Part shown: one piece after another, positions 6,128 through 49,291 of the stretch
How positions within the stretch are numbered: position 1 is the stretch's first letter
Layout of the letters: the number at the start of each line of letters is the position of its first letter
Virus record (IMG/VR): IMGVR_UViG_2757320985_000001
Source: a virus
Lineage: Duplodnaviria; Heunggongvirae; Uroviricota; Caudoviricetes; Demerecviridae
DNA: 49,291 nucleotides
Strand: one strand, 5' to 3'
Program-made: the position numbers and the translations under genes
The notes under the pieces: model-generated
Told to the model about the DNA's origin: nothing
The model's input: the letters and a program-made list of their open reading frames with translations, nothing else
Databases searched by the model: none

Positions 6128-7946
6128 GACACTAAAATTCAGCAACGTTATGTCTTACGGTAAGGATATCGTAATTCATTTCGATAAGAATCCAGTTACT
6201 CAGTTAATCGGAGGAAACGGTCTAGGGAAGTCCACTATTGCTACTGTTATTGAGGAATTGTTTTATAACAAGAACTCACGTGGTATCAAGAAGGACGCCC
6301 TATTCTCTTGGGGTTCTCCGAAGAAAGAGTATGATATGCATGCTTACTTCTCGAAAGATGAAGATGAGTATGAATTGCATAAAGTAGTTAAATCAACTGC
6401 TAAGGTTACACTGATTAAGAATGGAGAAGATATCAGTGGACACACAGCAACTCAAACGTACAAGATGATTGAAGAGATTATGGGTGGTGACTTCCAAACA
6501 TTCACTAAACTAATCTATCAATCTGTTGGTTCCAATCTAGACTTCCTCAAAGCAACTGATGCAACACGTAAAGCTTTTCTTGTTAATCTGTTCAATCAGG
6601 AACAGTATAAAGAGATGTCAGAAACTATTAAGGCTGATCGTAAAGAAGTGGCAAGTACGTTAAGTAACTTGCAAGGCCAGATGGCCGTAATTACGAAGAT
6701 CCTCAATGGAAAAGGTAATCTCGGAAGTTTACAGGAGCCAGTTGAAGTTCCAGAATTTGATGAAGAACCGTTAGCACAAGAACTTACTGAATCGAAAATT
6801 AAGGCGGCATTAGCCAAGTCACAAGAGGCTAATATTACTAAACTCCGTAATTTGGACAAAGCTGTACAAGTTGCCGAACAATCTTTCGAGCCTTTCAAAA
6901 ATTTCCCTGCGCCCACTGACCAATCTGAAGAGATCTCAAGTGTTACGCGTGACTTAACGATTGTTACCTCACGTGCGGGAGAAGTCAAGAAACGTTATCA
7001 GAAGTTTAAGCAAGAGGCTTCAAATACTGAATGTCCTACTTGTGGTACGCATCTTGATACAACTGCTGCTCAAAAAGCAATGGATATGGCTAGAACAGAA
7101 TATGATCCTCTGTTTAAAGAGAAACAATCTCTTGAAGCTACATTGGAGCAGTTGAAGAAAGAACAAGTCGAGTACACTGCATATACTAGAGCTAAGGATG
7201 CTTTGGATAAGGCAATAGCAGCTAGGGACGAGTTCAAAAATTCAATGAGTGATGCTTCTTTTGAAGAACTCAATGTGCAAATCCTACAGGTGCAAATCCG
7301 ACAATTAGAACAGGAAATCGCAGATGGACGTTCTAAAGTTGCAATTGCCAAAGAGCATAATGCAAATGTCGAATTAGCCAATGCAAAATATAAAGCGAAA
7401 CTAGAACAGATTGAAAAAGCTGAGGCAGAAATGTCTGAGATAACGTCCAAACTGGATGGAGTATCAGAAGCTGTTGCTGATCTTGATATTCTGATCGCTG
7501 CATTGAAAAATCTGGTAGGATATAAACTAGAGCATAGTGTGAAAGTATTTGAGGAATTGATTAATAAATATCTTTCTATTATGACTGGTGGTAAGTTCGC
7601 ACTTGGATTTGAACTTGATGAAACTAAATTACAAGTAGTAATCTTCAATGATGGAAACCGCACCAGTATGGAGAACTGCTCTACTGGTCAGCAGAGTAGA
7701 ATTAACCTAGCAACTCTGTTAGCTATTCGAATGCTGTTAACATCTATTAGTAAAGTTAATATTAATCTTCTGTTCCTTGACGAAGTTATTAGCTTTATTG
7801 ATACGAAAGGACTTGATACTCTCGTTGAATTATTAAATGAGGAAGATAGTCTGAATTCTATCATTGTTTCTCATGGGCATACGCATCCATTAGCCCATAA
7901 GATTACTGTCAAAAAAGATGCAGAAGGATTTTCCTACTTAGAATAA
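6108..7946 (+). CDS. D13: Recombination ATPase, SbcC/Rad50-like subunit D13 (612 aa; start corrected to ATG 6108)
   Basis: Walker A GGNGLGKST, coiled coils with a CPTC zinc hook, signature CSTGQ, Walker B LFLDE. Confidence 0.93.
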   Translation: MSKIIIKTLKFSNVMSYGKDIVIHFDKNPVTQLIGGNGLGKSTIATVIEELFYNKNSRGIKKDALFSWGSPKKEYDMHAYFSKDEDEYELHKVVKSTAKVTLIKNGEDISGHTATQTYKMIEEIMGGDFQTFTKLIYQSVGSNLDFLKATDATRKAFLVNLFNQEQYKEMSETIKADRKEVASTLSNLQGQMAVITKILNGKGNLGSLQEPVEVPEFDEEPLAQELTESKIKAALAKSQEANITKLRNLDKAVQVAEQSFEPFKNFPAPTDQSEEISSVTRDLTIVTSRAGEVKKRYQKFKQEASNTECPTCGTHLDTTAAQKAMDMARTEYDPLFKEKQSLEATLEQLKKEQVEYTAYTRAKDALDKAIAARDEFKNSMSDASFEELNVQILQVQIRQLEQEIADGRSKVAIAKEHNANVELANAKYKAKLEQIEKAEAEMSEITSKLDGVSEAVADLDILIAALKNLVGYKLEHSVKVFEELINKYLSIMTGGKFALGFELDETKLQVVIFNDGNRTSMENCSTGQQSRINLATLLAIRMLLTSISKVNINLLFLDEVISFIDTKGLDTLVELLNEEDSLNSIIVSHGHTHPLAHKITVKKDAEGFSYLE

Positions 7947-8432: not shown

Positions 8433-9307
8433 TGAGTAAATCCTGGGGAAAATTTATTGAAGAGGAAGAAGCTGAGCTGGCTTCTCGTCGCAACCTAATG
8501 ATTGTTGATGGAACTAACTTAGGCTTCCGCTTCAAACATAATAATAGTAAGAAACCCTTCGCTTCAAGTTATGTTTCTACAATTCAATCTCTCGCAAAAT
8601 CCTACTCAGCTAGAACTACAATCGTTCTTGGTGATAAAGGAAAGTCTGTATTCCGTTTAGAGCACCTTCCTGATTATAAGGGCAACCGTGATGAAAAGTA
8701 TGCTCAACGTACAGAAGAAGAGAAAGCACTAGATGAACAGTTCTTCGAGTATCTTCGTGATGCTTTCGAGTTGTGTGAAACCACATTCCCAACTTTCACT
8801 ATTCGTGGTGTAGAAGCAGACGATATGGCAGCTTATATTGTTAAGCTCATTGGTCATTTATATGATCACGTTTGGCTGATCTCTACTGATGGTGACTGGG
8901 ATACTCTATTAACTGATCGAGTTTCTCGCTTCTCCTTCACCACACGTCGTGAGTACCATCTTCGTGATATGTATGAACATCATAACGTTGACGATGTAGA
9001 TCAGTTTATCTCTCTGAAAGCAATTATGGGAGATCTTGGTGATAACATCCGTGGTGTTGAAGGCATCGGTGCAAAACGTGGTTATAATATTATCCGAGAA
9101 TTTGGAAACGTTCTGGATATTATTGACCAACTTCCATTGCCTGGGAAACAGAAATATATACAGAATCTGAACGCATCGGAGGAGCTGCTTTTCCGAAATC
9201 TGATTCTGGTTGATTTACCGACTTACTGTGTAGATGCTATCGCTGCGGTTGGTCAAGACGTACTTGATAAGTTTACGAAAGATATTTTGGAGATTGCTGG
9301 ACAATGA
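8432..9307 (+). CDS. D15: 5' flap endonuclease / 5'-3' exonuclease D15
   Basis: 291 aa with IVDGTN, YKGNR, GVEADD, STDGD and GDLGDNIRGVEGIGAKR (H3TH) motifs, characteristic of T5 FEN. Confidence 0.96.
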   Translation: MSKSWGKFIEEEEAELASRRNLMIVDGTNLGFRFKHNNSKKPFASSYVSTIQSLAKSYSARTTIVLGDKGKSVFRLEHLPDYKGNRDEKYAQRTEEEKALDEQFFEYLRDAFELCETTFPTFTIRGVEADDMAAYIVKLIGHLYDHVWLISTDGDWDTLLTDRVSRFSFTTRREYHLRDMYEHHNVDDVDQFISLKAIMGDLGDNIRGVEGIGAKRGYNIIREFGNVLDIIDQLPLPGKQKYIQNLNASEELLFRNLILVDLPTYCVDAIAAVGQDVLDKFTKDILEIAGQ

Positions 9308-36016: not shown

Positions 36017-37798
36017 TTAGGTTAGGCGTTGAACTGTTACACGTAGTCTTGGTAAGAAGATAGCAGCTGCTTCGGCAGCATGGATAATAACTCCTAATTC
36101 AACGTTACCATTACCAAGGTTTTTTACTGTATAAATATACCCATTTCTACGAAAAGCCATCTCATCAGGTCTACTAGCCCAAGTTTGTGTGTAACTATAG
36201 GAAGTTGTACTGTGATATGGTACTAGATAGCCAGGTGGTAGGGTAAGGATTTGGTGAAATATACCATCCCCCGCAGTGTAACTCTGTTGGCGTCTACCTT
36301 GTACACGCCAGGCCTGCCCACTGTATGTACTAACACGTTGTCCCGCAGTGTTAATGTTGCCCATAATAACTTCGGTAGTTAATATGATAGTAGAGTTGGT
36401 GTTAGGCAGTCCTAACCAGACTGTTGCTAAAGGCTGGTAGTAATCACCTGCTGCAGGATAAGATGGATTGAGGTCATCCCCAACATAAGTACTGACAACA
36501 TTGCTAGGGAATAACCTTAAAGGTACTGTACTAGGACTCCATACAGGTCCATGTTCATTACCAATGGAGTTAGTATTAGTATCTACATACCATTGTTTAC
36601 CTACACCAAATTTATAAAGGCTAATTTGGGAAGCTGCACCTCCATAGTTAATGGGTGACCACAATCCACCATTACTGGAGCCTATAAATTCACATCGTGC
36701 AGTATTATCACCAAAAACTCCAGTATATGCAGCATTATTACCAACATACTCCATATCAGGGCGATAGCCTAAGTTTCCAAAGGCATTCTGGTTAATGAAT
36801 TTATATCCTGTATTTGGTAAACTAACCCCTTTAATAGTAAAATTAGAGGGAGAAATAAGGATATCAGAACCAGTAAATGGATTACCAGAAACTCCCATAT
36901 TACCATTAGAATAGCGCAGATTTAGCACATACCAAATAACCTTAGTAGGAGTAACGTTATACCAGTCCTGTACATATACCTTTCTAGTGGCTTGCGCAGC
37001 TATATTAGTCGTAGAACCCCTACAAACATATACTTTAGTAGGAAAGGAAGGGGATTGGTAGTTAATGTTTACATTAGAAGGTATCTCCCCTTTTTTACCT
37101 ACAAATCCACGTATATTAGAGTTACATACATAAAAATGATCATGCCCTCTGCCAGCAGATCCAATAGGCGCCTGCCAGTTAGGATCCCAATAATCTGTAT
37201 TTGCTGCATCTAGTGGAGGTACTGAAACTCCTGAAGGAAACCCAATAAGAGCCCAGGCTCTGGCAATGGCTTCACCAGCAGAAACACCACCAGGTCTATA
37301 GATCTGGAAACCGGAAGACTGTAGTAAAGTACCTCCAGTTCCTTGCCGAGCAATAGATTCCTCATGACCAAGACTACCATTATACGTATAAGTACCATGA
37401 GCTAGACTATCACCGATTGCAAAAGCAGAAGTTAGAGCTAACTCAGCGCCAGCACGTGGTTGATCTTCAAAAAAGTTTAGCATCTGGCCAACCTGAGATT
37501 GTGTACCATTAAGGAAACCCCTATGAGTACCATTTATCTCAATAGCAGTTAATATAACTCTACCAGGATCATTGGATTTAATGTTTATAATATCCCAAGG
37601 CATCTGAGTAACAAAATACCCATTACCTGCATCACCTAGAGCAGCCTCGTAAGTCCCATCAACTAGGACAAATGGCATATCTGAGTGGAAGATACTATTA
37701 GTATTTGGAGAGTAGTGCTGATTTATATCACCACCATTAGCAGCGTTTAGAGATAATACAGTTTTACCATCACTAAATTTTCCTGCGAAAAAACTCAT
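36017..37798 (-). CDS. oad: Receptor-binding protein pb5 (593 aa)
   Basis: N-terminus MSFFAGK…IFHSDMP of the pb5 family; located between terS and llp. Confidence 0.9.
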
Positions 37799-38714: not shown

Positions 38715-38908
38715 TGGATTGGTTAGGACTTATTACACTTGTAGTATGGCTTGTTTGGATTGTTGGATATATGACGTCGCACCGTAATCGCATACAGCGG
38801 CTAGAGGATAAAGTCACCCAACTGAATATTAATATGGATAAGTTACTGGACTCCCAACGTAATGATCGGGCACGTATTCACCAACTTGAGAGGGAATTAG
38901 ATGTTTAG
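38714..38908 (+). CDS. Small membrane protein (64 aa)
   Basis: N-terminal transmembrane helix plus heptad-like tail; coupled start. Confidence 0.75.
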   Translation: MDWLGLITLVVWLVWIVGYMTSHRNRIQRLEDKVTQLNINMDKLLDSQRNDRARIHQLERELDV

Positions 38909-41094: not shown

Positions 41095-42759
41095 TTATGC
41101 AAAGAATTTACCGTTTTTGAAATCAATCAAAGTACGTTGCCCGTTTGCATAGGTAATTAAATGCGTTTGCGTCCAGCTTGACGCGCCCACGTTGTAGCCC
41201 ATATCAAGGGAACCAGCAACGCCAGCGGTATAAACGCCGCCGTAAATGCTAGCCGTGTGAGTGTGACCAGTGTTAAGGCGTCCCAACTTTTTAAACTGCT
41301 TAGGATTGCCACGACTGCCGTTAATGCCATTGTGACCATGTACGCCGCACTCAATGCCCGCGATTTTAAACGACTGGTCAGTAGTCAGGAATATGGCGTT
41401 AAATTCGCAACCTGCGACATTACGCAAGGCGTAATCTAACACGTTAAACGTTTCGTCACGTTCACCGATTGCGGCGTAAATCGCAGCATTCAGGCGGTGA
41501 TATAGTTCGGCGTTTGCGGGATCATCCTTAATGTTAGCGTTACGATCATCAAGCCAGCGTGAAAGCGCTAAATCATGGTTTGATTCCACAATGATTGTTT
41601 GAGAGAAATCACGCTCCATAGACTCTAAAACGCGTCCAGTGTCGATAAGATCATCTAAAACCTTGTCACGTCCGGCGGCGTACTGTTTAGCAAGGAATAC
41701 ACCACTTGCGCGGTTATGATGATTGCGGGATGTAAAATCATGCACATCATGAATAAACTGATATTTCGGCTTGAGAATATCAAGCAATGAATTTTCACTA
41801 GCCCATGAAGCAACGGCACATTCATCATCTAATTTTTCGGCGTGAATATCGCCATATTGCAAGCCTAAAACGTGTCCAGACGTTTCAAAACATCCGGTAG
41901 CGGTAGCGCAAATATTCAAATCATAAAACATTCCGCTTTCGTCCATTGTTTCAAGCTGGCGCACAAAAAATTCGCCGTCGTCGTCAAACTCCACCAGCAA
42001 AGCGCCGAAATTATGCAGCGCCTCGGCTTTTTGACCTGCTTTCTGCTGAATGTAGTTTTTAAGCGTAGCCGTTCCGGTTGAATACATACGGCGCACAATT
42101 TCACCTTTTAACGCTGGTACACTTTCAGCGGTGATTTTAGCGTGACCGATTGCCAGCCCTTCAATATTTAAAGTCGTGGCGGTTTCTGCAAAACCTGTAA
42201 GCGGATAATCTGCCGTTGGTAATGCGTTAATTTCAGCCATGAAAGCAAAGCGGCGATTATTTAGGAAAACGTTTTTCTCGCAGATATATTTATTAAATGC
42301 GGGATCATATTTAATCCCTTCGTTACCTTCCCCATTCTGGAAGCCGTTTTTATTGTAAATGAATTTACTAACCAGCAATTCAGCGCCGATATAATCAGCG
42401 AACTTTTCCAGACTTGCTAAAAAGTTTTTATGCGGGAAAGTGTTATTTTGAATCGACGTTAGAATAAAACGGCGACCGGATTTAACTTCCCATTGTTCAA
42501 CGGTACTAGAAACAATTCCCGCCGCTTCGGGGCGATCATCATTTTTAATCGCCTTTTCAGCTTTTGCCGCTTTCGGTTTCGCTGGCTTATTTGCTTCCAG
42601 CCAGTCACAAATTGCGGTCGAATGTTTCGGCGTATCATAAACAGCTTTTGAAATATCGTCGCAAACTTCCAATTTAGTAGCGCGTAAACGCTTACCATAG
42701 AAATTAAAATCAGCGGCCATTTTCAAAATTTGAGCTTGTTTTTCTGCGGAAATATTCAT
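41095..42759 (-). CDS. A1: A1 protein (host DNA degradation / second-step transfer; metallophosphoesterase-fold nuclease)
   Basis: 554 aa; GDIH, DVHD, SNHD, HGH and GHTH metal-binding motifs; T5 position and size. Confidence 0.92.
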   Translation of the reverse strand: MNISAEKQAQILKMAADFNFYGKRLRATKLEVCDDISKAVYDTPKHSTAICDWLEANKPAKPKAAKAEKAIKNDDRPEAAGIVSSTVEQWEVKSGRRFILTSIQNNTFPHKNFLASLEKFADYIGAELLVSKFIYNKNGFQNGEGNEGIKYDPAFNKYICEKNVFLNNRRFAFMAEINALPTADYPLTGFAETATTLNIEGLAIGHAKITAESVPALKGEIVRRMYSTGTATLKNYIQQKAGQKAEALHNFGALLVEFDDDGEFFVRQLETMDESGMFYDLNICATATGCFETSGHVLGLQYGDIHAEKLDDECAVASWASENSLLDILKPKYQFIHDVHDFTSRNHHNRASGVFLAKQYAAGRDKVLDDLIDTGRVLESMERDFSQTIIVESNHDLALSRWLDDRNANIKDDPANAELYHRLNAAIYAAIGERDETFNVLDYALRNVAGCEFNAIFLTTDQSFKIAGIECGVHGHNGINGSRGNPKQFKKLGRLNTGHTHTASIYGGVYTAGVAGSLDMGYNVGASSWTQTHLITYANGQRTLIDFKNGKFFA

Positions 42760-43152: not shown

Positions 43153-43569
43153 TTATTCACCTGCGGCCTGTTTTACTTCCTCCGCTACGCCTAACAATTG
43201 CGCTACGGCTTCCAGCGTTTCCAGTTTTGCACTTTCCAAACTTGCCAGATCGTCGGCATCTTTAATAACGCCAGCATCAATGGCATGTTTAGCCATAACG
43301 CGCACATAGTGAGCTTTACGGACACTAGACCCGCCGCCAACTTTACGCGGTTTATCGCTTTTCTGGTAGGCTTTTGCACTGGTCAATTTAGAACGTACAG
43401 AAACAGGACTTGCAGCGCCAACGGCGGCGGCAATTTCTTTTAAGCCGTCAGTGTTAGCAAATTCAATTCCGCTTTTAGCGACCATTTCAGAATACATAGA
43501 AACAGCCTTTTCGGTGTTTTCTTCGTTCCAAGAGAATTTTGCGGTTTTTTCGGTTTTAACGTTAGACAT
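43153..43569 (-). CDS. A2: A2 protein (DNA-binding, second-step transfer; 138 aa, start corrected to ATG 43569)
   Basis: MSNVKTEKTAKFSWNEENT…SVRSKLT sequence of T5 A2 type; GGAG RBS. Confidence 0.9.
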   Translation of the reverse strand: MSNVKTEKTAKFSWNEENTEKAVSMYSEMVAKSGIEFANTDGLKEIAAAVGAASPVSVRSKLTSAKAYQKSDKPRKVGGGSSVRKAHYVRVMAKHAIDAGVIKDADDLASLESAKLETLEAVAQLLGVAEEVKQAAGE

Positions 43570-43793
43570 AATAAATACTCCATTCAATTATTAATTAAGG
43601 GATTATGATTAACTAATGTTAATCGTTATATTGCCCATATTTCAGGGCAATATAAAAGTAACACTAATCATATAAGTTTAAATTGTGTGCCATAACATTG
43701 TTCACACTACATGGTTAATATATCGAAAATCTAACATGAGGCGCTAGCCTTATTTATTTACGCCGATTAAAGGCGCGGGTTAATAATAAGCTA

Positions 43794-44612: not shown

Positions 44613-45139
44613 GAAACGTAAAGACAAACGCCACCGCACCACGTCCAGCGGCGCACTAAATTTAATGAAACGGGCGCGCGAATAACACCAAAACAACCAT
44701 TTTAGCAAGTAATTTTTTCATTTATATCTGCTCTAGGGTACTTGACAAAATCTAAAATCCTCGTGGTGAGGTTTTCTCGGTGTACCCCTTATGATTGCCT
44801 ATCTTTTCCTTTGAGGCGCTTAGAATGCGTTACAGAGCGTTTTAGACCCTGTTAATAACTTATACAAAAAGCAAAAATGAAATTTAATGAGTTATCCACT
44901 TGATTTTTCAAAAAAGTATTTTCTGCTGTTATTTTTCATTGACAAATAAGTTTAGACGTGCATTGATTGGTTAGCATACTAACAATCGCTAGGATAATAA
45001 TCACGCTGGTGGATTGTAACAGCCGAAACAGTTAGCAGACTATTAATACTCTAAAAACCTATTAGCCAACTAACTATTTCATATTATATAATATACTTAT
45101 AAATTAAAGAGAAATAATAACTATAAGAAACTATCGGCT

Positions 45140-45333
45140 AAGTGAGAACCACTATCATTTAGGTTATTCACAAAGTTATCCACAGCACAAAATAACTTGA
45201 CGCAATAGGCGACGTTTTGGCGACTTATCCACAGACTTATTCACAGGTTATCCTACTGTATAAATATACAGGGTAGAATGGTAGCAGTAACAACTGCAAT
45301 CAATTTTAAGGCGTCTAGGAACGATTCTAAGCG
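45140..45333 (+). repeat. Module A: Fur-like box, four DnaA boxes, LexA box, flanking motif
   Basis: TTATNCACA at 45164, 45176, 45225 and 45237; CTGTATAAATATACAG at 45256-45271; inverted homologue at 48500-48693. Confidence 0.8.
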
Positions 45334-45521
45334 GTTTTCTCGCTGCTACCCTTATTATAATAAAGCCTTGTGTACGCTTACAGGGAGCTAGAAATAGAAA
45401 ACACGCGGTTATCATAAAAACAAGCGTTAGGCAAGGAATAAAAAAACCTTTTCTTTTTTCTTGCCTCTAGCGAACAATTATCTATATCATTCACTCACCG
45501 ATTAACGAGGGAGACAAAGAA

Positions 45522-46523
45522 ATGTCTACTGTAAGAATTGCAGTACCAGCAAACACCACTATTATTAAGGGTAGTTTGCGCAACCTGCTAGATGGTAGTA
45601 GTGCGGCAAGCGTACAACATACCGCTACTATTGTAGAAAAGATTCACGATGAAATTTTAGACAATAATGATACTCATTATTCAGTCGATGATTTCACGCT
45701 ATTACTAGACCAGACAAGGGCGCTAGTAATTTTCAACCGTGATTATCATATTTTCCGTAATAGTCGTGGAACTGATATTGATTTTATCATTGTTGGCTAT
45801 AGTGAGTCTCATAGTGGTTACATTGCGCGATTATATAACGTGCAAGAAAAGGAGCAGGTAACAGCAACAAAAGTAAATAATATCAGACTGGATAGTGTCG
45901 GATCGTTATTAAATAGTATCTGGCGTGAATTATCATCCAGTTATAAAGGCGCGGATAGTGACGCAATCGAAACAACTGGCGTATTGTGTTTTGAACGCGC
46001 TAGCGGTAACATGTTGATTCCTAACGATTATTTAGAGTATGGGAATGAATCAAACGTTGCAAACGCTGGATTTACACTTTTACCGCTTGACAATGTAACA
46101 AAACAGGCTGTACAATCTCAAACTTCAAGCGCAAATGCGCAAACTACTGAAAATAAAGGAAATATTATGTCTAAAGTATCTTCTATCGTTGCCGCTAATA
46201 AATCCGCCGTTGTTAACGCTGCTAAACTGGAAGCGGGTAAAATTGCACTGACTCAAATCACAAAAGTAGCGGCGAAAAAAGCGCCGTTTATGATTAAAGG
46301 TTATATTGATACGCCGATTGGTCGTGTAGTGATCGCTAACCTGCTGAGTGTAGCGGTTGACCAGTACGCCCCGACTAATGCGAAAGCGAAAGCGGTAGCA
46401 GGCGCGGCAATGGAAGCGGCAATGTTGGAAATGGTACAGAGTTTCAATATTGCGGAAATGATCGATGAAATGGTAAAAGGTATTGACATTTCTACTTTTA
46501 CCACTAACACCGAAACAGAATAA
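45522..46523 (+). CDS. Pre-early hypothetical protein (333 aa)
   Basis: GAGGGAG RBS; first gene of the rightward pre-early operon; probable promoter TTGCCT-18-TATCAT just upstream. Confidence 0.82.
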   Translation: MSTVRIAVPANTTIIKGSLRNLLDGSSAASVQHTATIVEKIHDEILDNNDTHYSVDDFTLLLDQTRALVIFNRDYHIFRNSRGTDIDFIIVGYSESHSGYIARLYNVQEKEQVTATKVNNIRLDSVGSLLNSIWRELSSSYKGADSDAIETTGVLCFERASGNMLIPNDYLEYGNESNVANAGFTLLPLDNVTKQAVQSQTSSANAQTTENKGNIMSKVSSIVAANKSAVVNAAKLEAGKIALTQITKVAAKKAPFMIKGYIDTPIGRVVIANLLSVAVDQYAPTNAKAKAVAGAAMEAAMLEMVQSFNIAEMIDEMVKGIDISTFTTNTETE

Positions 46524-46586
46524 TAACTACTAGCGGGGATTATTCCCCGCTTTACTATTTCCCTGTTAATTGTTAGGAGACTAATT

Positions 46587-47081
46587 ATGTCAGAAGAAAA
46601 ATATGGCTTTTCGCTAGAAAGTGTGAATGAAGCTAAACACGATATGATCGTTTTAGTTGATTGTCATACTGGCTATTGCGGGGAGGGCTGGACGGAGGAA
46701 CATTTTGTTCCCGCTGGCTGTGATCTGGACGCTTTCGCAAACGAACACGCATATGATAATGCTTCTCGTTTCGGTAGCGATGGGGAAGAAGATGAAGAAA
46801 CAGGGGAATGGATTGAAAATGATAATGTATATGCGAGTCTTTATCATTATCAATTGAGTAAGTCCGGTACTTATGTAAATGGCGGCGATCCTATTAATAC
46901 CGTTATGAAACTAATTATTAAACACGGTGGCGCGGAAATAATTGGTAACAAGGCGTTATTATATGCAAATCGATTAAAACAGCTTGTTTATATTCCTGAT
47001 AATTCCCGTTGGGATGAATATGCCGTTTTACAGAAAGAACTAAAACGCTGTTTCGGCGTGGAAGCATTAGAAATAGTCTAA
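46587..47081 (+). CDS. Pre-early hypothetical acidic protein (164 aa)
   Basis: AGGAG RBS. Confidence 0.8.
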   Translation: MSEEKYGFSLESVNEAKHDMIVLVDCHTGYCGEGWTEEHFVPAGCDLDAFANEHAYDNASRFGSDGEEDEETGEWIENDNVYASLYHYQLSKSGTYVNGGDPINTVMKLIIKHGGAEIIGNKALLYANRLKQLVYIPDNSRWDEYAVLQKELKRCFGVEALEIV

Positions 47082-47094
47082 TGTAAAGTTTTGT

Positions 47095-47131
47095 AAAGGT
47101 CGCCCTAATCGGCGACCTTTTTTGTTATAAT
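47095..47131 (+). terminator. Terminator overlapping an extended -10 element
   Basis: AAAGGTCGCC-CTAATC-GGCGACCTTTTTT immediately followed by TGTTATAAT. Confidence 0.72.
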
Positions 47132-47188
47132 GCCTTTACACCGAAACGGTGGATTGAAAATTTTCCCTGATTTCTAGGAGTTAAGCAA

Positions 47189-47401
47189 ATGTTAAAGAAT
47201 GTTTCCCTTGCCCGTTCTAAAGGTTTTAAGCTGGTGGATGTTAACACGTTTGAGCGTCCAGATTGTAAAATCGAATATGTAGCACGCAACAAAAACGCGT
47301 TTCGTGTTACTGAAAAGAAATTTGACAAGCGCGGAAATTTGGTAGCCGAAACGGTTAAACACTTTGCCACCTTTTACGCTGCTTTTCGTGGGGTATTATG
47401 A
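47189..47401 (+). CDS. Pre-early hypothetical protein (70 aa)
   Basis: AGGAG RBS. Confidence 0.78.
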   Translation: MLKNVSLARSKGFKLVDVNTFERPDCKIEYVARNKNAFRVTEKKFDKRGNLVAETVKHFATFYAAFRGVL

Positions 47402-47499
47402 GATCCTTATATATTGCTCTAGCGTTTGCTACCGTTGGCGTTGTTTGCTCATTCGCTGCATTTGTTTTAAAAATGTACCTGATATTTTCCCAGCTTTAG
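47398..47499 (+). CDS. Small hydrophobic peptide (33 aa, not in ORF track)
   Basis: MRSLYIALAFATVGVVCSFAAFVLKMYLIFSQL; ATGA overlap with the previous stop, fills the gap exactly. Confidence 0.6.
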   Translation: MRSLYIALAFATVGVVCSFAAFVLKMYLIFSQL

Positions 47500-47510
47500 G
47501 AGCTTGACAA

Positions 47511-47855
47511 ATGGTTATTTACGAGGGTAATCGTTTTGTTACTAATTGCCGTCCGGCATTATTAGCAAGCTATTTAAATCAGCTTTCACCAGTTTATAAA
47601 GGCGTGGTTAATATCTATGAGGGCAAATCACATTATAAGATTAATGCCGTTGTTGCTCGCGAGCTTGCCTTCCAGTTTCTTACTTTTGGCGCATGTGATG
47701 TACAGGTTATGGGTGAGCCATTAGTAGCAGAAAATGAAAATGAATTTATTGACATTTTCCGCAAAGTATGTACAGAGCGCCTGATTATGAAAGGCGCGTA
47801 TATTCAATCAACCGCTGAAAGTATTGAAACAGCGTTTCGGGGAATTGCGCAATGA
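47511..47855 (+). CDS. Pre-early hypothetical protein (114 aa)
   Basis: AGGAG RBS. Confidence 0.8.
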   Translation: MVIYEGNRFVTNCRPALLASYLNQLSPVYKGVVNIYEGKSHYKINAVVARELAFQFLTFGACDVQVMGEPLVAENENEFIDIFRKVCTERLIMKGAYIQSTAESIETAFRGIAQ

Positions 47856-48052
47856 CTAAAGATGAAGCGTTAGAAAAAATGAAACAAGGTTTCAAAGTTA
47901 GTAATCAATATTTTACTAGCGATGAATTTTTGTACATGAAAGAAAACGGCGTGATCATGTCGGAAGATGGTTACAATTTTAATGATTGGTTTTTCAATAT
48001 TCGCAAGGGTGAGGAATGGAAGCTAGACGGTTGGAGCGTCTACCGTGAATAG
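47852..48052 (+). CDS. Pre-early hypothetical protein (66 aa)
   Basis: ATGA-coupled to the previous gene. Confidence 0.75.
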   Translation: MTKDEALEKMKQGFKVSNQYFTSDEFLYMKENGVIMSEDGYNFNDWFFNIRKGEEWKLDGWSVYRE

Positions 48053-48175
48053 CTGGTGGCGAAAAACGCAAAGTCACAAATCTAATAATACCGCTGGGAA
48101 ACATTCCCAGCGTTTACGATTTGGGAACGGCTTCACAATGTTAATAATAATCATTCTCATTCTAGGAGCAATGGC

Positions 48176-48415
48176 ATGGCTGTAAGAATTTTACGATATG
48201 TAGAACGTAAAGAAACCGATATTATGCAGCATCATTTAACTGATGCGCAATATGCGCAATTTTTAGAAATGCAGAAAAGCGGAGCTAGTACGGCGGCGCT
48301 AGGGGCGTGGATCAATTCAGTTTCAACGTGTACGCATTTTGATTCATACGGGTATACACCAGCCGAAACCGTCCAGATCTTTGATGACTATGAGAAAGAA
48401 TACATAACAGACTAA
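48176..48415 (+). CDS. Pre-early hypothetical protein (79 aa)
   Basis: AGGAG RBS; followed by a terminator. Confidence 0.75.
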   Translation: MAVRILRYVERKETDIMQHHLTDAQYAQFLEMQKSGASTAALGAWINSVSTCTHFDSYGYTPAETVQIFDDYEKEYITD

Positions 48416-48421
48416 TAATAA

Positions 48422-48449
48422 CGGGGCGTAACTATCGGCCCCGCTTTTT
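48422..48449 (+). terminator. Terminator ending the rightward pre-early operon
   Basis: CGGGGC-N10-GCCCCG followed by CTTTTT. Confidence 0.65.
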
Positions 48450-48499
48450 CTGGCCTTCCTCAAATTTCCCCTTATTAAAGTACCTCCTCCAAAAATAAA

Positions 48500-48693
48500 C
48501 GCGTTAGAATGCGTTTGAGAGCGTTTTAGAGCTATATTAGAGTTATTCACTACGCAGGAATACTGTATAAATATACAGTAGAATAACCTGTTGATAAGTC
48601 TGTTGATAACGCCTCAAAATCGCTAGGATTTTGTCAAGTCAAATCGTGCTGTTAATAAACCTGTGGATAACTTAAATAACAGTGTTTCTCACT
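48500..48693 (-). repeat. Module B: inverted homologue of module A
   Basis: TACTGTATAAATATACAGTA at 48561-48580; DnaA-like boxes on the minus strand at 48589, 48601, 48650 and 48662. Confidence 0.8.
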
Positions 48694-48696
48694 TCC

Positions 48697-48840
48697 CTTT
48701 CTAAATGCAAATCATTCTCATTATGCGATTCATTCGTATTCCGGTAATCAAATGATAACCATTCTCATTCCGCTTTCTAAACGCAAATCATTCTCATTCA
48801 ACTTCTCAAATGCGAATCAATCTCATTATCATTCGCATTT
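48697..48840 (+). repeat. Array of Fur-box-like repeats
   Basis: TGCAAATCATTCTCA (48706), TGATAACCATTCTCA (48753), CGCAAATCATTCTCA (48782), TGCGAATCAATCTCA (48811). Confidence 0.7.
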
Positions 48841-48878
48841 CGGCAGGCAGGGCATTTTCATTTTTGCCCTGCGCTTTT

Positions 48879-49167
48879 GTGCAAATCCGACATTTGCCCC
48901 CACGGATTACGTGCCAGCGTGCATGTGCGAATCCGACAATTTTTGGTAGTGTGCAAATCCGATGGCAAATATTTTTTATATGTGCAAATCCGACCATGAA
49001 TTTTCCTAAAAACTCCAGCAATCCGCAACTGCGATGCAATCCAGCTGGATTTACTAGAGTATGTGCAAATCCGACAAGTGTTAAGGTGTGCGAATCCGAC
49101 AAGATTTTTGTGACTTCGATTGGAGGGTGTGTGATTGTGTGGGTTTGGGGAGAAGTGCGAATCCGAT
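48879..49167 (+). repeat. Seven direct copies of GTGCRAATCCGAY (presumed injection-stop region)
   Basis: Copies start at 48879, 48925, 48951, 48982, 49063, 49088 and 49155. Confidence 0.9.
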
Positions 49168-49291
49168 GAGATTTTGGGAGGAACTACGGAAGGAGCAGCG
49201 GTGATGGTGCTTTAGCACCGGTTTGCTGCGTTTTTGGGGATAATGTGGGATGTTTTGGCTAGAATTGAGATTAGTGGAGATAAAGCGAAAT

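Follow-up and report, generated by a model that had tools for sequence, protein, structure and literature searches.

LexA-type palindromes beside DnaA boxes in the terminal repeat of a T5-like phage: a candidate host-factor module at the injection-stop region

The last few kilobases of IMG/VR virus record IMGVR_UViG_2757320985_000001, a Demerecviridae sequence of 49,291 nucleotides (nt; the whole stretch analyzed is referred to below as the window), contain two palindromes that closely resemble the operator of the SOS repressor LexA. They form the inner ends of the two 132-nt arms of an inverted repeat that carries DnaA boxes, and the same palindrome is found at equivalent places in phages as distant as those infecting Vibrio. 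We hold, with moderate confidence, that these palindromes are genuine, selected LexA operators, as predicted from their sequence, and that they would belong to a combined LexA and DnaA module acting as a barrier or marker at the injection-stop region and not as classical promoter operators.

The phage is T5-like and virulent, and the last 4.5 kb of the window are 93 to 96% identical to many T5-like phages of Salmonella and Escherichia (Epseptimavirus and relatives). In annotated relatives, the equivalent DNA is part of the long terminal repeat bearing the pre-early genes, arranged as dmp, A1, A2, a divergent rightward block of small genes and, at the end, the non-coding injection-stop region. 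The terminal-repeat context of the window was taken from phages EscoHU1 and T5.

Two LexA-type boxes within a DnaA-bearing inverted repeat

An earlier note on this DNA had reported two near-consensus SOS boxes, and both lie where it placed them (Table 1). The 16-bp palindromic core CTGT-N8-ACAG is exact in the two boxes. Compared with the consensus TACTG(TA)5CAGTA, quoted in PMC6590174 and applied to Salmonella in PMC8072944, box 2 has the 19/20 matches claimed for it, while box 1, said to have the same core, has 17/20. The boxes had also been described as intergenic, which is right overall, although a mechanically called minus-strand open reading frame (ORF) of 55 amino acids (45248-45415) extends over box 1 with its 3' end. 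A small ORF of this kind is annotated as hypothetical in EscoHU1 and is unannotated in S114 and T5.

The loose pattern CTGT-N8-ACAG is not very rare and is too common to convince by itself: it occurs twice in the window against 0.69 expected, and 14 out of 100 shuffles also reached two. The strict pattern CTGTAT-N4-ATACAG is rare, being found twice against an expectation of 0.01 (200 first-order Markov simulations) or 0.005 (analytical). According to an approximate heterology index, built on 20 Escherichia coli operators and with values that are indicative only, box 2 (ca. 1.0) and box 1 (ca. 4.0) outrank every other 20-mer of the window and score as well as or better than most of these chromosomal operators; the next-best 20-mer (8.6) is within a gene. 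The remaining LexA-like matches with two mismatches or fewer are all within long ORFs, except for a two-mismatch one at 38782.

The matches inside long ORFs at 589, 5429 and 29925 were set aside as chance or unrelated, together with a partial copy at 36125-36140, which repeats exactly 16 nt of the left part of the box (TACTGTATAAATATAC). This copy is located inside a minus-strand gene of 593 amino acids (36017-37798), whose position corresponds to the receptor-binding protein gene of a Klebsiella relative. It encodes part of the peptide ...GYIYTVKN..., is common to only one very close relative (two loci on the same contig) and is probably due to chance in AT-rich sequence.

What the earlier note had missed is that the boxes are part of a larger structure, that of T5 palindrome D and inverted repeat D with their DnaA boxes. 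The two arms of the inverted repeat (repeat pair I1) are 75% complementary. Each contains two pairs of DnaA or DnaA-like boxes, eight boxes in all, with 3 nt between the members of a pair, and the nearer pair stands 10 nt from the palindrome at both sites. The link drawn earlier between the boxes and two-step DNA transfer is a reasonable one, since box 2 borders the injection-stop region on its left; box 1 is 3.3 kb away from the stop region.

The corresponding T5 element (IRC-spacer-IRD and IRD'-spacer-IRC', with palindrome D) has arms of ca. 131 nt and paired DnaA boxes 3 nt apart. It occupies the same position in the terminal repeat, with one copy between the divergent pre-early operons and the other before the DRC/DRE and DRD repeats. 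The window agrees with T5 in all four respects: the inverted-repeat pair, the spacing of the DnaA pairs, their placement, and sequence homology. Identity between the left arm and the equivalent T5 arm is 80%, while matches to the opposite, inverted T5 arm reach 76.5%. The 16-mer core of the box is identical in T5 at both equivalent places, and both window boxes read AAAT at the center, as in T5, although the arms are inverted.

The T5 repeats and their DnaA boxes were reportedly set out by Heusterspreute et al. in 1987. They are described in Wang et al. 2005 (annotation of AY587007) and by Davison (bioRxiv 10.1101/866236), who proposed that membrane-bound DnaA halts the incoming DNA. Neither LexA nor SOS occurs in the Davison preprint, three recent T5/BF23 papers on the stop signal do not use these names, and open-access full-text searches pairing LexA with T5 returned nothing relevant. 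The repeat element is already known, the window being one more member, and its reading as a pair of LexA operators appears to be unpublished within the open-access literature searched.

Table 1. Positions of the boxes, repeats and pre-early features in the window
Feature	Positions	Strand	Remarks
LexA-type box 1, TACTGTATAAATATACAGGG	45254..45273	.	Inner tip of left arm; T5 6135-6154
LexA-type box 2, TACTGTATAAATATACAGTA	48561..48580	.	T5 palindrome D, AY587007 9330-9349
Left arm of 132-nt inverted repeat	45140..45271	+	T5 IRC-spacer-IRD, Repeat Region 2; between divergent pre-early operons
Right arm of 132-nt inverted repeat	48563..48694	-	T5 IRD'-spacer-IRC'; left edge of Repeat Region 3/injection-stop region
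Outer DnaA-box pair of left arm, TTATTCACA, 3 nt, TTATCCACA	45164..45184	+
Inner DnaA-box pair of left arm, TTATCCACA, 3 nt, TTATTCACA	45225..45245	+	Nearer pair, box 1
Inner DnaA-like pair of right arm, TTATCAACA twice	48589..48609	-	Nearer pair, box 2
Outer DnaA-box pair of right arm, TTATTAACA and TTATCCACA	48650..48670	-
TTAGAAT...GAGCGTTTTAGAGC motif	48504..48534	+	Inner flank of box 2; direct copy at 44820-44846; repeat family D9
Direct repeats ending in ATCATTCTCATT, T5 DRC/DRE type	48686..48862	+	Injection-stop region; repeat family D1
Direct repeats GTGCRAATCCGAC, T5 DRD type	48877..49174	+	Injection-stop region; repeat families D2/D3
A1	41095..42759	-	Required for host DNA degradation and second-step transfer
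A2	43153..43587	-	DNA-binding pre-early protein required for second-step transfer; rival binder of the palindrome
Promoter-like site TTGCCT, 18 nt, TATCAT	45461..45490	+	Just upstream of the rightward block; counterpart of T5 putative promoter T5P4
Rightward pre-early gene block	45522..48415	+	Bracketed by both modules; DUF7566 plus a number of small ORFs, among them one with a weak Tad2-like match
G+C-rich hairpin followed by T run	48421..48450	+	3' of the last gene of the block; counterpart of T5 palindrome C/putative terminator

Conservation and variation of the palindrome

A conservation scan, proposed in the earlier note, finds the box kept from close relatives to Vibrio phages. Among close relatives (40 sequences, i.e., the window and 39 loci, with 30 distinct sequences at each site), conservation reaches 98% in the box core, compared to 87 to 92% in the flanking non-coding DNA. 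Much more telling is the comparison with distant relatives. Here CTGTAT-N4-ATACAG is found at equivalent places, usually adjoining DnaA boxes, in Klebsiella phage B01 (with an A1 protein 74% identical to that of the window), in IMG/VR contigs with an A1 identity of 44 to 68%, and in Vibrio phages pVp-1, Quinn, D30 and their relatives, in which A1 is only 31 to 35% identical. Carriers of the box span Tequintavirus, Epseptimavirus, Sugarlandvirus, Vipunavirus, Thalassavirus and unclassified Vibrio phages. Shewanella phage KASIA, which has an A1 homologue but not the first-step-transfer layout, was dropped from the comparison.

When the non-coding DNA of the window was compared with that of distant phages by short-word blastn, only a few islands of similarity emerged, of which the box was the strongest, followed by the DnaA pairs, the AGAGCGTTTTAGAGC motif and the ATCATTCTCATT unit. 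Several Vibrio phages retain the box at an A2-proximal site that has neither repeat arms nor DnaA boxes next to it. Genome-wide scans of T5, pVp-1, D30, Klebsiella phage B01 and Quinn found sites of box quality confined to the first-step-transfer region.

Throughout these phages the hexamer arms CTGTAT and ATACAG are kept, while the center of four bases switches between AAAT and ATTT or is replaced by ATCC/GGAT. Conserved arms around a variable center are the pattern expected of a dimeric protein that reads the arms, and this fits LexA. By our own estimate, the chance that a palindromic hexamer half-site at such spacing fits the LexA consensus is ca. 1 in 4,096.

The asymmetric AAAT/ATTT center of the 16-mer cores (cores at 45256-45271 and 48563-48578 in the window) flips independently of the arms, and the two boxes are true mirror images in many relatives. 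Such a pattern suggests that the arms have exchanged sequence or that templates were switched inside the palindrome. In addition, Vibrio-type and intermediate phages have a third, A2-proximal module consisting of a TTAGAAT...TTTTAG motif, a box (often with an ATGTAT half) and, 4 to 14 nt further on, a TTGAC hexamer pointing toward A2 (comparison loci L100, 8515-8560; L085, 6252-6300; L090, 7841-7880; L096, 8553-8600; L043, 8941-8980). No acceptable -10 element was found at 16 to 18 nt from TTGAC in the A2-proximal modules of the Vibrio-type phages, and hence no promoter is claimed. Only a decayed remnant of this third module is left in the window (44847-44868, CTGT...ACAA with a longer spacer).

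Neighboring repeats and pre-early genes

The inner flanks of the boxes carry another motif, TTAGAAT...(TAC)AGAGCGTTTTAGAGC, which is also present in reverse orientation at ca. 45318-45340 and, in other phages, at positions 8495-8509 and 5679-5693 of L100 and 3771-3786 of L045. Words of the TTAGA type recur at distances of ca. 11 and 22 nt. The AGAGCGTTTTAGAGC core is kept in Vibrio phages whose other non-coding DNA cannot be aligned, and the motif may be the site of a further binder. Within the injection-stop region, the DRC/DRE-type unit AATGATAACCATTCTCATT (48748-48770, a member of the family at 48686-48862) is also kept in distant Vibrio-type and metagenomic relatives (L093, L100 and L101).

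A Pfam search of A2 and the genes of the rightward block gave DUF families, one sub-threshold match and nothing else. This match links a block protein of 66 amino acids (47852-48052) to the Thoeris anti-defence Tad2-like domain (E = 0.005; 17.8 bits versus a cut-off of 25), which hints that this variable block may carry anti-defence genes. In the T5/BF23 literature, a promoter upstream of gene 011 has been characterized by experiment.

LexA, DnaA and other candidate binders at the injection stop

The pause in T5 injection is independent of phage protein synthesis (Davison, bioRxiv 10.1101/866236), which points to host proteins already in the cell. LexA, with ca. 1,300 molecules per cell (PMC6590174), is both pre-existing and abundant, and thus suits a signal that works before any phage protein is made. 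From this, together with the operator match, the architecture of the repeat and the deep conservation of the box, we infer LexA occupancy and a barrier role as follows. As the first-step-transfer DNA enters, LexA dimers already in the cell would fill both boxes and DnaA would fill the neighboring ones, with no need for phage protein synthesis. The two inverted LexA and DnaA complexes would then flank the variable rightward pre-early block and constitute the left border of the injection-stop region. Built by the host, they would serve there as a barrier or marker and, for as long as the pause lasts, keep the DNA and its transcription held or insulated. Finally, the complexes would be removed or bypassed once the pre-early functions A1 and A2 act; loss of LexA after breakdown of the host DNA may help, but is probably not required.

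Two roles suggested in the earlier note fare less well. That the boxes act as decoys for LexA is implausible, with two boxes per terminal repeat set against the cellular pool given above, and LexA cleavage as the trigger of second-step transfer is somewhat disfavored. T5 plates on recA1 cloning strains. Genome-wide transposon and CRISPR interference screens with T5 report fhuA and no lexA, recA or dnaA phenotype (PMC7553319), and their silence on recA and lexA makes an obligatory RecA/LexA trigger unlikely.

The same screens, whose authors point out that intermediate effects escape them (PMC7553319), also weigh against LexA and DnaA occupancy in general, as do several features of the boxes themselves. 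The excess of conservation over the flanks is modest in close relatives, the whole repeat being conserved. The half-site distal to the DnaA boxes is ATGTAT or TTGTAT in 14 out of 99 distinct contexts, and CAA or TAG replaces CAG at one of the two sites in a few close relatives; all these variants are predicted to bind LexA less well. Co-variation between the box and the motif of the host is uninformative because the LexA motif is identical in all known hosts. Lastly, the promoter scan found no convincing promoter over either box (the best candidates match 9/12 hexamer positions and have the -10 inside the box), which bears out what the earlier note had concluded. The T5P4-like site of the rightward block, for its part, begins ca. 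190 nt downstream of box 1. Repression of a promoter, the classical function of a LexA box, is thus not apparent here.

The scan nevertheless leaves an alternative that we regard as unlikely but not negligible, namely that the boxes are ordinary SOS operators of weak inward promoters, with the -10 inside the box and the -35 in the adjacent DnaA box. LexA and DnaA would then repress two outputs, at site 1 that of an auxiliary promoter for the variable pre-early block and at site 2 a transcript that is antisense or short, both rising only when SOS is induced or LexA depleted. Chromosomal LexA boxes often overlap the -10 or the transcription start (PMC8072944), and a minus-strand TTATCA, 16 nt, TATATT arrangement (9/12) overlaps box 2 in this way. 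It is mirrored by a weaker TTATTC, 16 nt, TATAAA at box 1 and resembles the weak TTTTCA, 18 nt, TATATT of pVp-1, which overlaps the box and is directed into the block. However, the -35 hexamers are poor (2 to 4 matches out of 6), any box of this sequence inevitably contains a -10-like hexamer, and the literature gives three characterized pre-early promoters only, none of them at the boxes. A minus-strand terminator-like hairpin (48516-48497), ca. 50 nt downstream of the putative start at site 2, would suit a short transcript, but it is not kept in T5 or in the Klebsiella phage.

Alternatively, a pre-early protein of the phage, A2 or a different one, could bind the palindrome, whose likeness to an SOS box would be either incidental or a deliberate overlap to compete with LexA. 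A2 is a candidate, as it is annotated as DNA-binding, is needed for second-step transfer and is kept in every box-bearing phage. Conserved segments of A2 persist between the window and pVp-1 at 39% identity, and its AlphaFold model is confident (predicted local distance difference test score of 84), with a helical N-terminal domain that weakly resembles Myb or helix-turn-helix folds. The recurrent ATGTAT half-site, which fits LexA less well, is also in favor of a phage protein. Still, A2 has no Pfam family and no significant fold match; the Foldseek search of the model against PDB gave nothing at E ≤ 0.001 and is uninformative on its specificity. Moreover, a site for such a protein would have to coincide by chance with the LexA consensus at 12/12 arm positions and in its AT-rich center, and an element that sets a stop without phage protein synthesis must be read by host factors. 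For these reasons we consider this explanation doubtful.

That the palindrome acts as a DNA structure (a hairpin, a cruciform or a hot spot of arm exchange), or merely rides within a conserved repeat, is highly improbable: it is a perfect 6- to 8-bp palindrome at the tip of an inverted repeat, and its center flips as arm exchange or template switching would produce, but single-stranded hairpins are weak (-4.9 and -3.3 kcal/mol, with box 1 no better than shuffles, z = -1.4), on which ground the cruciform was rejected, selection for structure would keep the pairing whereas here exact letters are kept across subfamilies with unalignable flanks, and the persistence of the box in Vibrio phages that lack the DnaA boxes and arms indicates more than hitch-hiking.

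The arrangement of the boxes resembles several known systems only in part. The high-affinity SOS operators of Enterobacteria (sulA, umuDC, recN, dinD and the colicin type) have in common with the window boxes the CTGT-N8-ACAG core, the AT-rich spacer and the TA flanks. Those operators, however, overlap the -35, the -10 or the start of an SOS-induced promoter, while the window boxes overlap no convincing promoter and form an inverted pair 3.3 kb apart that abuts DnaA boxes in a virulent phage. Other mobile elements with consensus SOS boxes, such as coliphage 186 (tum), GIL01 and the CTX phage, employ host LexA as a sensor or regulator in LexA-controlled switches (for GIL01 see also PMC4551915). 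Their switches gate prophage induction or lytic promoters, whereas the window phage has no lysogeny to leave; being virulent, and with no gated promoter in the promoter scan of the window, it does not present an SOS-gated temperate switch. A parallel for LexA and DnaA sites adjacent on one regulatory stretch is the promoter region of E. coli uvrB, which is reported to bear both (PMC6015884). The uvrB sites regulate the defined promoters of one gene, whereas the window carries the combination twice, as inverted copies on either side of a gene block and next to the injection-stop signal. A DnaA-flanked inverted pair of SOS boxes with no evident promoter in a virulent phage is a new form of an already familiar type of site.

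What halts T5 DNA entry at 8% of the genome, with no phage protein synthesis involved, and what lets it resume has been a puzzle since the 1960s, and the sole recent model of the stop, which invokes the DnaA boxes, is still hypothetical. The most conserved element of the T5 repeats is a top-grade predicted operator for a second abundant host protein. In its boldest form, which we judge quite improbable, host LexA and DnaA would be the host component of the injection-stop signal: pre-bound LexA would help to set or hold the pause, and its removal, through RecA-stimulated cleavage upon degradation of the host DNA by A1 or through displacement by A1/A2, would license second-step transfer. LexA occupancy of the boxes, if true, would itself mean that a strictly virulent phage puts the SOS repressor to an uncommon use, at a distance from any clear promoter. 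Should LexA fail to bind, the palindrome still points to a protein site of deep conservation in the terminal repeat of these phages.

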